NCBI RefSeq assembly: GCF_000027125.1
Contig: NC_017626.1
DNA length: 64,000 bases
Source: Escherichia coli 042
GTDB taxonomy: Bacteria > Pseudomonadota > Gammaproteobacteria > Enterobacterales > Enterobacteriaceae
Direction: 5' to 3' (one strand)
The notes beneath the pieces were generated by a model. It had not been told where the DNA came from. It saw nothing but the letters and a program-made list of their open reading frames with translations, and did no database searches. A program made the position numbers and the translations under genes. This document shows positions 5,628-53,366 of this stretch, piece by piece. Each line of letters begins with the position of its first letter. The first letter of the stretch is position 1.

Positions 5628-5780
5628 TTACTCTTTCAATTTGCAGGCTAAAAACGCCGCCAGCTCATAACTCTCCTGTTTAATATGCAATTCACACAGT
5701 GAATCTCTTATCATCCAGGTGAAAAATAAAAGCGTGAAACAAATCACTATTAAAGAAAGTAATCTATATTTCTGCGGCAT
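5628..5780 (-). CDS. hokA: Hok-family type I toxin HokA (small membrane peptide)
   Basis: 50 aa MPQKYRLLSLIVICFTLLFFTWMIRDSLCELHIKQESYELAAFLACKLKE; Hok/Gef family. Track ORF extends 20 codons further upstream in frame. Confidence 0.85.
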   Translation of the reverse strand: MPQKYRLLSLIVICFTLLFFTWMIRDSLCELHIKQESYELAAFLACKLKE

Positions 5781-9669: not shown

Positions 9670-10665
9670 ATGCAGCCCAAAATTTACTGGATTGATAACC
9701 TGCGAGGGATAGCGTGTTTAATGGTGGTGATGATTCACACCACTACCTGGTATGTGACCAATGCTCATAGTGTTAGCCCCGTCACATGGGATATCGCCAA
9801 TGTTCTGAATTCTGCCTCTCGTGTCAGCGTGCCGCTATTTTTCATGATTTCCGGCTATCTCTTTTTTGGCGAACGCAGCGCCCAGCCGCGCCATTTCTTG
9901 CGTATCGGCTTATGTCTGCTTTTTTATAGCGCAATCGCACTGCTCTACATTGCGCTGTTTACCTCCATCAATATGGAGTTAGCGCTGAAAAACCTGCTGC
10001 AAAAGCCAGTGTTTTACCACTTGTGGTTTTTCTTCGCGATTGCGGTGATTTATCTGGTTTCACCGCTGATTCAGGTGAAGAACGTCGGCGGAAAAATGTT
10101 GCTGGTGCTAATGGTGGTGATTGGCATTATCGCTAACCCAAACACAGTGCCGCAGAAAATTGACGGTTTTGAATGGCTGCCAATTAACTTATATATCAAT
10201 GGCGATACTTTTTACTACATCCTGTATGGCATGTTGGGCCGCGCTATAGGGATGATGGACACACAGCATAAAGCACTGTCGTGGGTGTGCGCCGCACTGT
10301 TTGCGACGGGGGTTTTTATTATCTCTCGCGGGACATTATATGAATTGCAGTGGCGCGGAAATTTTGCCGATACCTGGTATCTTTACTGTGGGCCGATGGT
10401 TTTTATCTGCGCAACCACGCTATTGACTCTGGTTAAAAACACGCTTGATACGCGTACTGTTCGCGGACTTGGCTTAATCTCCCGCCATTCGTTGGGTATA
10501 TACGGATTCCACGCCTTGATTATCCATGCACTGCGCACCCGGGGGATTGAGCTTAAAAACTGGCCAATACTCGATATTATTTGGATCTTTTGCGCGACGT
10601 TGGCAGCGAGTTTGTTACTTTCTATGCTGGTACAACGAATCGACAGAAACAGACTAGTGAGTTAA
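9670..10665 (+). CDS. wecH: Membrane O-acetyltransferase WecH (YiaH), acyltransferase-3 family
   Basis: 331 aa polytopic membrane protein, [23 protein letters not shown]... typical acyltransferase_3 N-terminus. Confidence 0.9.
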
Positions 10666-10706: not shown

Positions 10707-11147
10707 TTATTCGCTGTATTCTTCCTGGGTAATCAGTGTTTCTTTTGGTGGGTTTATTCCGGCATCACGAATATTCTTCTGCACCGCTACTGCACCAAAC
10801 AAGCTTAAGAAGAAAGCCAGTCCATAAAAACCTTTCTCGCTGAGTAATAACGTCGCATTCCACAGACCTACCATCAGTAACGCAACAGAGATAATAAAGA
10901 CAGTCAGGCAGGTCATATAATAAATGGAGGTGGTCGGTATGCCTTCATACTTGTCCCGAACGGTCTTTTGATAAGACGCCGCAGAAAACAGTCCTAATAC
11001 CAGTACGGCAAAATAATATCCTTTTTCATTTAACTGCATCTCTGCATTCCATAGCCCTAACAGATAGGTAACGATACCACCAACGAGAGCTATCCATGAC
11101 ACAATACTGAATGCCGGAGAATAGGTTGATATTTTGTTGTCCATCAC
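10707..11147 (-). CDS. yiaA: Inner membrane protein YiaA
   Basis: ~145 aa, two repeated YiaAB-type transmembrane halves; start may be the second Met. Confidence 0.85.
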
Positions 11148-18760: not shown

Positions 18761-19940
18761 ATGTTTACTAAACGTCACCGCATCACATTACTGTTCAATG
18801 CCAATAAAGCCTATGACCGGCAGGTAGTAGAAGGCGTAGGGGAATATTTACAGGCGTCACAATCGGAATGGGATATTTTCATTGAAGAATGATTTCCGCG
18901 CCCGCATTGATAAAATCAAGGACTGGTTGGGAGATGGCGTCATTGCCGACTTCGACGACAAACAGATCGAGCAAGCTCTGGCTGATGTCCACGTCCCTAT
19001 TGTTGGGGTTGGCGGCTCGTATCACCTTGCAGAAAGTTACCCACCCGTTCATTACATTGCCACCGATAACTATGCGCTGGTTGAAAGCGCATTTTTGCAT
19101 TTAAAAGAGAAAGGCGTTAACCGCTTTGCTTTTTATGGTCTTCCGGAATCAAGCGGCAAACGTTGGGCCACTGAACGCGAATATGCATTTCGTCAGCTTG
19201 TCGCCGAAGAAAAGTATCGCGGAGTGGTTTATCAGGGGTTAGAAACCGCGCCAGAGAACTGGCAACACGCGCAAAATCGGCTGGCAGACTGGCTACAAAC
19301 GCTGCCACCGCAAACCGGGATTATTGCCGTTACTGACGCCCGGGCGCGGCATATTCTGCAAGTATGTGAACATCTACACATTCCCGTACCGGAAAAATTA
19401 TGCGTGATTGGCATCGATAACGAAGAACTGACCCGCTATCTGTCGCGTGTCGCCCTTTCTTCGGTCGCTCAGGGCGCACGGCAAATGGGCTATCAGGCGG
19501 CAAAACTGTTGCATCGATTATTAGATAAAGAAGAAATGCCGCTACAGCGGATTTTGGTCCCACCAGTTCGCGTCATTGAACGGCGCTCAACAGATTACCG
19601 CTCGCTGACCGATCCCGCCGTTATTCAGGCCATGCATTACATTCGTAATCACGCCTGTAAAGGGATTAAAGTGGATCAGGTACTGGATGCGGTGGGCATA
19701 TCACGCTCCAATCTTGAGAAGCGTTTTAAAGAAGAGGTGGGTGAAACCATCCATGCCATGATTCATGCCGAGAAGCTGGAGAAAGCGCGCAGTCTGCTGA
19801 TTTCAACCACCTTGTCGATCAATGAGATATCGCAAATGTGCGGTTATCCATCGCTGCAATATTTCTACTCTGTTTTTAAAAAAGCATATGACACGACGCC
19901 AAAAGAGTATCGCGATGTAAATAGCGAGGTCATGTTGTAG
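18761..19940 (+). pseudogene. xylR: xylR (AraC-family xylose activator) interrupted by an apparent +1 frameshift after codon 43
   Basis: ATG 18761 opens MFTKRHRITLLFNANKAYDRQVVEGVGEYLQASQSEWDIFIEE then hits TGA at 18890-18892; the rest of XylR (DFRARIDKIKDWLGDGV... to ML*) continues in another frame from 18891 to 19940. Sequence reads gaagaaTgatttccgc where gaagaagatttccgc would restore the recalled protein. Confidence 0.7.
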
Positions 19941-51328: not shown

Positions 51329-52465
51329 TCAATGATCCAAATAAAGATAATGCATCCAACTGGTCATTCTTAGCAGCACCTTCCGCATCACCGAAACATG
51401 GCTGAAATGGTCGGAGTAAACTGCCACCTGGGCGTAAATGCCGTCGGGTAAGGCATCGATATCATCGTTAGGGTCCAGTTCAATGGTTCCCAGCACACCG
51501 TCCGTGCCGGGCACGACCGTTAATGATTGCAATACCCCCTGCGCCTGATAAGAACCGCCTGGCACGACAGGTAAAATACTGGTCAGTTTGCCGTGGAACA
51601 CCTGCCCAGGTAGCGCGTTAAACACCACTTCCGCATCATCGCCGGGTTTCAGACGTAACAGCGAGTTTTGCCGAAATTGGGCGACAATTTGCCGTTTTTG
51701 CTCGGGGATGAAAACCATCACCGGACGCAACGGCAAGGCAGCTGCGTATGTACCTGGGCGGATCAGTACCTGAGTAACGTAGCCATTGCTCGGCGCGCGA
51801 ATGACAGTCTGCTCAAGGTTATATTTTGCTTCAGTAAGTTGCGCTCTTAAGCTCACAATCTGCGACTGCTCGCCGTTAACCATACTGTCGAGCTGGCTCT
51901 GGATCTGCGCCTGCTCCGCCACCGAGCCTTTCACCAGCGCATCCTGCGCGAGGAAATTTTGCCGCGCATCGTCGATGTCACGTTCCGAGAACGGATTCAC
52001 CGCCGCCTGGCTGCCTTTCAGGTAACGTTGATAATTTTTAAACAGACGGTCGCGCTCCGCTGAAACCTGGGTGGTGTTGGCCTGCGCTTCAGTGAGCTGC
52101 GCGCGCAGCGTCTTTATATTATGCGTCGCCGTCATCAGGTCAGCCTGAAGTCTGTCAACTCGCGCCTGGTAACGGACCGGGTCGAGTTTAAAAAGCACCT
52201 CGCCCTTTTGAATAAGCTGATTATTTTTGTCAGTGACTTCAGTAACAATTCCCGTCACCTGTGGCGTGATGGGGATCGCTATCACTGCCTTTTGCGCGGT
52301 AAAAGTGTAAGGGTGATTGTAGTTCATCAACAAAATCAAACCACTCACCAGAAACACGCCTCCCAGCGCCGCCGTCGCCAGCGTCCACTGATTTACCGGA
52401 ATGCGGAAGATTTTAAAGACCGCCCACGCCAGCGCCACGTAAGTTAAAACGATCAATAGATCCAT
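51329..52465 (-). CDS. yibH: HlyD-family membrane fusion-like protein YibH (paralogue of YiaV)
   Basis: 378 aa; by eye roughly three quarters identical to the YiaV ORF at 40898-42034, identical termini (MDLLI... / ...HYLYLDH). Confidence 0.9.
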
Positions 52466-52467
52466 AA

Positions 52468-52830
52468 TTAGATCTCCGGGAACGTGGAATAGTCAGTCTT
52501 TTTCTCGGCGGCGAGTTGATGCTCCAGCCGGGAAATTCGGTCAGAAAGTGCGGCGATTTCCGGGTCAGTCGCTTTCTCCTGCGACGTAACATGTGACTGC
52601 ATACCCCAGCCACGCTCCGGTTGATAGAGCGTCGCCCAGATCCACAGAAACGGCCAGATAACATGCAGAGTAAACAGGCTCACCCAGCCCGCCGTATGAA
52701 TAGCGTCGGCATGGGGATGGTTGCGCTTTTTGGCAATCAGATAAGGGATGTCATGTATCGCGATGATTCCATAAAAAATCACCAGAAAGACGAAGATCAG
52801 CACTCCCAACGCGAAATAGTTTAGAAACAT
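52468..52830 (-). CDS. yibI: Small inner membrane protein YibI (DUF3302; paralogue of YiaW)
   Basis: 120 aa [30 protein letters not shown]...; 2-bp gap to yibH. Confidence 0.9.
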
Positions 52831-53046
52831 ATCTGCCTCGGATTCACGTTTATCGGTGTTGTTTTTTGGCTGGCAGCCAGAAGGGAGTCAGGCTGATATT
52901 TTGACAATAATCCGGGTTCGCGATTCTCGCCATAACACCAAAGAATAATTTTAAGAGGTGATGAGTTGCTTAGTTACATAACGATTTCATGACGAAGGCA
53001 TAACATGCTGTAGATCACATCAGGTGAACGCCGTAAGAAAATATCT

Positions 53047-53223
53047 TGTGATTCAGATCACAAAGATTCAACAAACCATCAAAACAAAAATGTGACATCA
53101 CTCACATTTAAATGCCATTTTTAGCGAAAATCGCCGCCTTGTTGCTTTTTTACACAATAGTTTTGTGATGAGCATCACGTCAATTACCTCTCTACCCCCT
53201 ATATTTATGTGACTGATATCACA
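53047..53223 (+). promoter_or_regulatory. Array of four CRP-consensus palindromes in the mtlA promoter region
   Basis: TGTGA-N6-TCACA matches at 53047-53062 (tgtgattcagatcaca), 53091-53106 (tgtgacatcactcaca), 53208-53223 (tgtgactgatatcaca) and near-match 53164-53179 (tgtgatgagcatcacg). Confidence 0.7.
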
Positions 53224-53366
53224 CAAAAGGCCGTCGACTGGACAGTTAACCGATTCAGTGCCAGATTTCGCAGTATCTACAAGGTCCGGCTACCTCTGCC
53301 GCCACATTAACAAAAAACCTCGGGCTTCCAGCCTGCGCGACAGCAAACATAAGAAGGGGTGTTTTT

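Follow-up and report, generated by a model that had tools for sequence, protein, structure and literature searches.

Why does the short region upstream of mtlA carry several near-consensus CRP palindromes, and does their arrangement mean more than their number? A first-pass annotation of the window, by which we mean the whole 64,000-bp stretch of DNA analysed here, had described three perfect TGTGA-N6-TCACA sites and one near-perfect site upstream of mtlA, spaced 44, 73 and 44 bp apart, and had called their density unusual. All of this was borne out. A pattern search of the window for TGTGANNNNNNTCACA at 0 mismatches returned exactly three matches, at 53047-53062 (TGTGATTCAGATCACA), 53091-53106 (TGTGACATCACTCACA) and 53208-53223 (TGTGACTGATATCACA), compared to an expectation of 0.04 exact matches, and none of 100 dinucleotide-preserving shuffles of the whole window reached three. 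When the search was extended to 2 mismatches, the sole additional site in the region with at most one mismatch was found at 53164-53179 (TGTGATGAGCATCACG, in which the last base is G), and only two further sites with at most one mismatch occurred elsewhere in the 64 kb, at 9771 and 19365. Four of the six window sites at this stringency fall inside 177 bp, a clustering far beyond chance (by our own estimate a probability of about 1e-7 to 1e-6). The centres of these four sites, at 53054.5, 53098.5, 53171.5 and 53215.5, gave spacings of exactly 44, 73 and 44 bp. A fifth, degenerate site with 7 of the 10 core bases (CATGCTGTAGATCACA, 53004-53019) was located 43 bp upstream of the first perfect palindrome.

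The sites in the window match one to one those published for the K-12 mtl operator, which are centred at -262.5, -219.5, -175.5, -102.5 and -58.5, their centres lying 43, 44, 73 and 44 bp apart (Lee et al., NAR 2026, PMC13421365), and the four palindromes are thereby identified as CRP2 to CRP5. The degenerate site is CRP1 (centre 53011.5, equivalent to -262.5), and its score of 7 of 10 core bases, as well as the 10 of 10 found for CRP2 (centre at -219.5) and CRP3 (-175.5), equals the number of conserved bases given for these sites in K-12 (PMC13421365). CRP4 (-102.5) retains 9 of 10 core bases and CRP5, the promoter-proximal and class-I-like site (-58.5), has a perfect core. CRP3 stands out in having perfect consensus flanks as well as a perfect core (aaaTGTGAcatcacTCACAttt), with all 16 arm and flank positions in agreement with the 22-bp CRP consensus AAATGTGATCTAGATCACATTT. 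Binding strength was estimated with an approximate PWM, symmetrised and built from 14 classical non-mtl CRP sites, which reproduces the canonical consensus and whose training sites span 5.6-18.2 bits. Using this matrix, CRP3 (19.5 bits) and CRP5 (15.7 bits) ranked first and second among the 63,979 positions of the window, CRP2 (13.6 bits) and CRP4 (13.3 bits) ranked sixth and seventh, and CRP1 (10.9 bits) ranked 15, placing CRP2-CRP5 inside the range spanned by the training sites or beyond its upper end. The PWM scan and the comparison with the footprinted K-12 sites, both proposed as checks in the first-pass annotation, agreed with it, in that none of the four palindromes scored weakly and the published positions and spacings are those of the window. 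Its statement that the mtl promoter has multiple CRP sites also stood, except that the operator contains five sites rather than four, CRP1 having been missed.

We conclude with high confidence that the four palindromes, together with the weak CRP1, make up an operator array for cAMP-CRP in front of mtlADR, the mannitol operon of E. coli. This feature has already been described in detail, and its confirmation adds nothing new to the biology; the five-site operator is credited to Ramseier & Saier 1995, with Figge et al. 1994 also cited (PMC13421365), and the five CRP sites were already cited in 2017 by the same laboratory (Seok; PMC5320558).

The array sits in the intergenic region between yibI (52468-52830, minus strand) and mtlA (53367-55280, plus strand), and a 901-bp query matched 5,404 of 5,426 complete E. 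coli genomes, in which the annotation is always yibI and mtlA. The regulated gene, mtlA, encodes the mannitol PTS EIICBA and is identical to that of K-12 at 636 of 638 aligned positions, the stop codon counted. It is followed on the same strand by mtlD (55509-56657), encoding mannitol-1-phosphate 5-dehydrogenase (381 of 383 positions identical), and mtlR (56657-57244), encoding a repressor without a DNA-binding domain that is identical to K-12 MtlR over all 195 residues. The 536-bp intergenic region aligned without gaps to that of K-12 MG1655, with 12 or 13 substitutions, none of them in a half-site. The two operators share the number, order, half-sites and 43, 44, 73 and 44 bp spacings of their sites, as well as MtlR and the predicted promoter (PMC13421365), and differ at five positions inside the N6 cores of CRP3 (CATCAC in the window, CACTAC in K-12), CRP4 (TGAGCA versus TGAACG) and CRP5 (CTGATA versus TTGATA). 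The C that replaces the K-12 T beside TGTGA in CRP5 may lower affinity somewhat. The operator haplotype is rare, with a single genome among the 5,426 identical over 291 bp.

Comparison across species revealed that the arrangement of the sites is tightly held. Among the 80 loci of an MtlA-seeded genome scan, the exact 44/73/44 pattern was found in 40 Enterobacterales species, ranging from Escherichia, Citrobacter and Enterobacter to Serratia, Yersinia, Pantoea, Erwinia, Pectobacterium, Hafnia and Budvicia, and spacing variants occurred in Providencia (44/72/44), Aeromonas (45/73/44), Tolumonas (45/74/43) and Photobacterium (45/73/43). When 41 operators were stacked without gaps, half-sites carried 1.78 bits per column (1.85 for CRP2 and 1.79 for CRP4), compared to 0.50 for the N6 cores and 0.56 for the DNA between sites. 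Conservation across species does not extend to CRP1 (0.36 bits per column), in line with its published dispensability. Parsimony on a 54-taxon mtlA tree gave a similar picture, with 1.1 Fitch steps per site in the half-sites compared to 13.5 in the N6 cores, 10.2 in inter-site DNA and 8.8 at four-fold (synonymous) sites of mtlA. As is characteristic of CRP sites, the half-sites are held while the N6 cores and the surrounding DNA drift.

This pattern bears on the possibility that the palindromes play no part in regulation and are either a chance grouping or what is left of a repeated or mobile element. A repeat search did detect weak direct and inverted repeats among the sites, including a 31-nt direct repeat of 71% identity (52965-95 and 53141-71), as such an origin might leave behind. 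Nevertheless, only 0.04 exact sites are expected per window, a permissive Rfam search of 52400-53800 returned no match at an E-value up to 1 (and no evidence of a structured RNA or sRNA like MtlS of Vibrio), and half-sites that are nearly invariant across a bacterial order while the DNA between them is scrambled refute this explanation, to which we assign next to no probability. The 31-nt repeat falls in a stretch that shows no conservation between species and, like a weak inverted pair at 53062-74 and 53139-51, is probably due to chance. The spacers share no similarity, as also reported with regard to duplication of a two-site module (PMC13421365), indicating that the array did not arise by such a duplication.

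To learn where else paired palindromes with this spacing occur, metagenome contigs were scanned for two perfect palindromes 43-46 bp apart, which matched at least 120 stretches; the 80 loci listed provide a picture that is not quantitative. Among these 80, 24 had mtlA adjacent and three more were truncated mtl operators with the 44/73/44 pattern, and every mtl-linked pair among the matches listed (24 + 3) was spaced by 44 bp. Other listed loci, classified by eye, were tandem satellites, iteron-like arrays and Rex-type TTGTGAA-N4-TTCACAA boxes, and further ones, also judged by eye, adjoin a Crp/Fnr-family gene and genes of anaerobic metabolism (moaA, radical-SAM and ytfE-like). No MtlR homologue was found near any non-mtl locus among the matches listed, and no second MtlR-type target was found there.

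The many Rex-type and Crp/Fnr-associated loci in this set (classified by eye), together with the use of the same palindrome by other regulators outside the enterics, raise the question of whether the mtl palindromes are operators for a protein other than CRP, either MtlR itself or another factor of the Rex type or the FNR family that reads TGTGA-N6-TCACA. We consider this extremely improbable. MtlR has no domain that binds DNA and no binding of DNA by MtlR has been reported, E. coli is not known to have a Rex, and the FNR consensus TTGAT-N4-ATCAA is not matched, the sites having G at the discriminating positions. Furthermore, the flanks and the preferences at position 6 (TGTGAt...aTCACA, with aaa/ttt outside) follow the 22-bp CRP consensus, and binding of CRP to the K-12 sites has been established experimentally, including by EMSA with pairwise probes (PMC13421365).

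With the palindromes assigned to CRP, their spacing takes on a specific meaning. The first-pass annotation had treated the stacking as a matter of density, and this part of its reading needs to be amended, since the 44-bp spacing is the feature recognised by the repressor MtlR (PMC13421365). MtlR, having no DNA-binding domain of its own, represses by bridging two DNA-bound CRP dimers 43-46 bp apart, with an optimum at 44-45 bp, and it produces a supershift in EMSA only when both CRP sites of such a pair are occupied (PMC13421365). In K-12, CRP2/CRP3 is the preferred MtlR-binding pair and CRP4/CRP5 is bound as well, whereas CRP3-CRP4, 73 bp apart, binds MtlR only after being shortened to 44 bp; conversely, a malK pair 34 bp apart gains MtlR binding once it is lengthened to 44 bp (PMC13421365). 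The distances in the window place CRP1-CRP2 (43 bp), CRP2-CRP3 (44 bp) and CRP4-CRP5 (44 bp) within the MtlR range and CRP3-CRP4 (73 bp) outside it, and these three mtl pairs are the only ones in the window that score at least 8 bits in the PWM and lie 43-46 bp apart. The substitutions R167E and L178A in MtlR abolish docking to CRP and repression in vivo (PMC13421365), and alignment to K-12 MtlR showed that both R167 and L178 are present in the protein encoded here.

Genetic analysis in K-12 showed that the sites contribute unequally. Chromosomal replacement of CRP2, CRP4 or CRP5 (mutants M2, M4 and M5) abolishes expression and growth on mannitol, replacement of CRP3 has a mild effect and replacement of CRP1, which is dispensable and normally unoccupied, has none (PMC13421365). 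In strain GPEC1054, an IS21 element is inserted at 53030/53031 and separates CRP1 from CRP2-CRP5, which is consistent with the dispensability of CRP1.

The sites, their strength and exact spacing, their conservation and the intact mtlA, mtlD and mtlR genes are all observed in the window. CRP occupancy, MtlR bridging and the essentiality of individual sites are known from the K-12 orthologue (PMC13421365) and, with the half-sites identical, probably apply here as well. The regulation would then proceed as follows. At high cAMP, CRP dimers would occupy CRP2, CRP3, CRP4 and CRP5, and the dimer at CRP5, near -58.5, would recruit RNA polymerase to a weak promoter (TGGACA, a 17-bp spacer and TGnCAGATT). 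The far-upstream sites would also be required, presumably in an architectural role, and the same presumably holds for the 73-bp gap; looping or anti-silencing have been offered as hypotheses for activation from so far upstream (PMC13421365). The 44-bp spacing within CRP2/CRP3 and CRP4/CRP5 would orient two CRP dimers for bridging by one MtlR dimer, and MtlR bound in this way would mask the activating surfaces of CRP and repress transcription. The MtlR-CRP-DNA complex structure is an AlphaFold3 model rather than one solved experimentally (PMC13421365). Relief of repression depends on the product of the regulated gene, because dephosphorylated EII-Mtl pulls MtlR to the membrane, making MtlA a membrane sink for MtlR (PMC13421365); dephospho-HPr, abundant in the presence of glucose, would compete MtlR off MtlA and restore repression.

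Some observations could also be accommodated by a pure activator array, in which the CRP sites are real, their spacing serves only the helical phasing needed for cooperative class III activation and MtlR acts through another DNA-binding partner. CRP2, CRP4 and CRP5 are all needed for activation (PMC13421365), and in 2017 the Seok laboratory, which did not detect an interaction of MtlR with CRP off DNA, proposed an unknown DNA-binding partner (PMC5320558). In addition, MtlR does not bridge the 73-bp gap, yet the length of this gap varies as little as that of the 44-bp gaps, indicating that constraints besides MtlR act on the spacing. Nevertheless, the EMSA supershifts reported in 2026 require two occupied CRP sites 43-46 bp apart and could be transferred to an engineered malK operator, and MtlR carrying R167E or L178A loses the supershift together with repression in vivo (PMC13421365). 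The geometry points in the same direction: 44 bp amounts to about 4.2 helical turns, which puts neighbouring dimers about 70 degrees out of phase, an arrangement that simple same-face cooperativity would not select. We therefore regard a pure activator array as very unlikely and retain the reading in which CRP activates from these sites and MtlR represses by bridging pairs of CRP dimers.

The position of CRP5 is compatible with activation of a promoter predicted just downstream. From the published position of the CRP5 centre at -58.5, +1 would be at about 53274, in register with a putative -35 hexamer TGGACA at 53239-53244 (plus strand) and a putative extended -10 element TGcCAGATT at 53259-53267 (plus strand). 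The block cTGGACAg is kept in register in Enterobacteriaceae. Relative to CRP5, the -10 region is likewise held in one gapless register, with the sequence GTGccAGATT in Enterobacteriaceae, whereas Yersinia, Serratia and Pantoea have GTGaTAGAGT. The CRP5 centre (53215.5) lies 46.5 bp upstream of 53262, the first base of the hexamer in the extended -10 element, and this register is fixed across species. The mtl promoter was missed by a generic sigma-70 scan because it has 8 of 12 matches, compared to a threshold of 9; the scan returned two minus-strand consensus matches only, which were judged not meaningful. Hand arithmetic on alternative promoters, in which CRP2 would serve as a class II site or the -10 element would be AAAAT, gave positions that fit poorly, and such promoters are speculative.

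Between the -35 and -10 hexamers there is also a candidate Cra (FruR) match, ACTGAATCGGTTAA, at 53246-53259 on the minus strand. The window contains four matches to RSTGAAWCSNTHHW, taken here as the Cra (FruR) consensus, of which this is one, and the block is kept in Enterobacteriaceae. A Cra site is predicted at this position, and mtl is known to be repressed by Cra (PMC13421365).

The malEp-malKp cluster of E. coli resembles the mtl operator in having several CRP sites in one intergenic region that form a higher-order class III activation complex, but CRP2 and CRP3 of malK, 34 bp apart, recruit MtlR only once their spacing is changed to 44 bp, and mal also uses the co-activator MalT. CytR-CRP anti-activation, as at deoP2 and cdd, resembles MtlR repression in that the repressor contacts two DNA-bound CRP dimers and masks activation; CytR, however, is a DNA-binding protein of the LacI family that also contacts its own operator between the CRP sites, whereas MtlR has no DNA-binding domain. 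In the CytR arrangement, tandem CRP sites are separated by about 52-53 bp and CytR octamer half-operators occupy the intervening DNA. The mtl spacings of 43, 44, 73 and 44 bp differ from this arrangement, and inspection of the spacers by eye revealed no GTTGCATT-type octamers.

Mannitol operators of other gammaproteobacteria, including that of Vibrio cholerae, share with the present one CRP pairs 43-44 bp apart upstream of mtlA, and in our own scan Vibrio and Photobacterium loci showed 117+43 or 45/73/43 patterns. They differ in that their sites are fewer or weaker and in that the AAAAT and AACAAA boxes described below are absent. V. cholerae in addition uses MtlS, an antisense sRNA, and the MtlR proteins of some Vibrio have lost their fit to the CRP pair.

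The mtl operator is a textbook-grade case of combinatorial control, almost unmatched among E. coli promoters in its number of strong CRP sites, and one in which what the repressor recognises is not a DNA sequence but how far apart two activator sites lie, as shown in 2026 (PMC13421365). Beyond confirmation, the value of the present analysis is comparative, since the 44/73/44 register is frozen across a bacterial order, including the gap that MtlR does not read. Together with boxes that are not part of any CRP site and with rapidly changing site cores, this frozen register offers modest leads on how CRP dimers at -102 to -220 activate a promoter. We regard it as possible, if rather doubtful, that through its fast N6 cores, the boxes around CRP2 and the fixed 73-bp gap the operator carries information beyond the published model.

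The 73-bp gap between CRP3 and CRP4 is as invariant as the 44-bp gaps even though it is not read by MtlR. It corresponds to about 7.0 helical turns, so that both pairs face nearly the same side of the helix. From Escherichia to Aeromonas and Photobacterium its length varies by no more than 1 bp, and, if the operator does carry such additional information, this constancy implies that the four dimers form a single rigid nucleoprotein architecture instead of two pairs acting independently.

The N6 cores themselves appear to change quickly, an observation that we treat as a curiosity rather than a result because the sample is small and codon bias may lower the synonymous rate used for comparison. 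Among 14 E. coli haplotypes, 11 of 24 N6 columns were variable, compared to 23 of 187 other operator columns (Fisher P = 2e-4). In six disjoint pairs of close species, N6 divergence was 0.32, compared to 0.19 at four-fold sites of mtlA (P = 2e-4), and the three closest pairs gave 0.29 for N6, 0.08 for inter-site DNA and 0.12 for four-fold sites; on the 54-taxon mtlA tree, the difference between N6 and four-fold Fitch steps (13.5 versus 8.8) had P = 9e-6. Fast change in these cores could reflect tuning of affinity or a mutational effect of bound CRP. An origin of the N6 changes by template switching (quasi-palindrome correction) was rejected, as the variant cores are not reverse complements of one another.

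Finally, two short boxes flank CRP2, AAAAT(A) at 53038-43 and AACAAA(G/C) at 53070-76, both close to invariant in Enterobacterales and not accounted for by the CRP consensus, which hints at an unrecognised factor or a DNA-shape element. No counterpart of either box was found in the CRP4-CRP5 spacer, and in Aeromonas and Vibrio the corresponding position lacks AACAAA. Upstream of CRP4, a T-run followed by ACAC is present at 53145-55.

CRP3 and CRP4, two of the strong cAMP-CRP sites upstream of mtlA, are separated by a gap (53107-53163) that places their centres 73 bp apart, corresponding to approximately 7.0 helical turns. Comparison of mtl operators revealed that this centre distance was exactly 73 bp in 40 Enterobacterales species and differed from 73 bp by no more than 1 bp in Providencia, Budvicia diplopodorum, Aeromonas, Tolumonas and Photobacterium. 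The CRP3-CRP4 pair is not bridged by MtlR, the repressor without a DNA-binding domain that bridges CRP dimers 43-46 bp apart (PMC13421365).

Three conserved elements were found near the CRP sites. An AAAAT(A) box (53038-53043) lies directly upstream of CRP2, and an AACAAA(G/C) box (53070-53076) lies 8 nt downstream of it, close to the CRP2-CRP3 midpoint. Both boxes fall outside the CRP consensus and were near-invariant throughout Enterobacterales, including Providencia, Edwardsiella and Budvicia. The Aeromonas and Vibrio operators lacked AACAAA at the equivalent position, and no counterpart of either box was found in the CRP4-CRP5 spacer. The third element, a tGT..TTTTTTTACAC block (53139-53155) positioned 16-30 bp upstream of the CRP4 centre, was retained in Enterobacteriaceae and Serratia. 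The block may bind Fis or be intrinsically bent. Its TTGTT stretch and the AACAA box that follows CRP2 are complementary, and formed an inverted pair (I6) in the repeat search.

The N6 cores of the strong sites, the central 6 nt between the TGTGA and TCACA half-sites (CRP2, 53052-53057; CRP3, 53096-53101; CRP4, 53169-53174; CRP5, 53213-53218), were more variable than the adjoining DNA and also than the four-fold synonymous sites of mtlA. Across 14 haplotypes of E. coli, variation was seen in 11 of 24 N6 columns, compared to 23 of 187 in the rest of the operator; within the species the CRP2 core was invariant, with the variability residing in the cores of CRP3, CRP4 and CRP5. Divergence in close species pairs was 0.29-0.32 for the N6 cores versus 0.12-0.19 for synonymous sites, and Fitch steps per site on a 54-taxon tree were 13.5 versus 8.8 for the four-fold synonymous sites of mtlA.

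The haplotype of the operator region (53000-53290) was rare: of 5,426 complete E. coli genomes, a single one (NZ_OZ547043.1) matched it at 100% over the 291 bp, 172 showed at least 99% identity, and most stood at 97-98%. In the chicken isolate E. coli GPEC1054 (locus L093), an IS21-family element (istA and istB) inserted at 53030/53031, 16 bp upstream of CRP2, leaves an intact CRP2-CRP5 operator cut off from the weak site CRP1 and from yibI, consistent with CRP1 being dispensable.

A metagenome scan for perfect palindrome pairs 43-46 bp apart identified a locus, L116 (contig ERZ650307 NODE-10433, ~2081-2200), in which a yibI-like gene is followed by a CRP2-CRP3 pair of the mtl type, with no difference from the pair in locus L153. 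L116 diverges directly past CRP3, beyond which CRP4, CRP5 and mtlA were absent. The locus is either a rearrangement of the operator or an assembly chimera. Among the matches listed, non-enteric TGTGA-N6-TCACA sequences were often TTGTGAA-N4-TTCACAA arrays on low-GC contigs (L100, L145, L148, L159, L162 and L170), which, judged by eye, look like Rex-type boxes. TGTGA-N6-TCACA alone is insufficient to identify CRP in unknown organisms.

Finally, the Cra/FruR consensus RSTGAAWCSNTHHW was matched perfectly by ACTGAATCGGTTAA on the minus strand at 53246-53259, between the putative −35 and −10 elements of the mtl promoter; the window's three other matches occurred at 19740, 25870 and 51988. An approximate PWM, derived from 14 classical non-mtl CRP sites, placed other strong CRP-like 16-mers in the window starting at 5733 (14.9 bits), 14663 (13.8 bits) and 26257 (13.7 bits). 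CRP-like sites at 11133 and 11660 might be part of the xyl region, should the window be colinear with K-12. The 228-bp mtlA-mtlD spacer (55281-55508) contains the REP-like palindromes GCCTGATGCG...CATCAGGC and GCCGGATAAGGCG...CGCATCCGGC; a 1-bp indel and a short stretch of diverged sequence set it apart from its K-12 counterpart.
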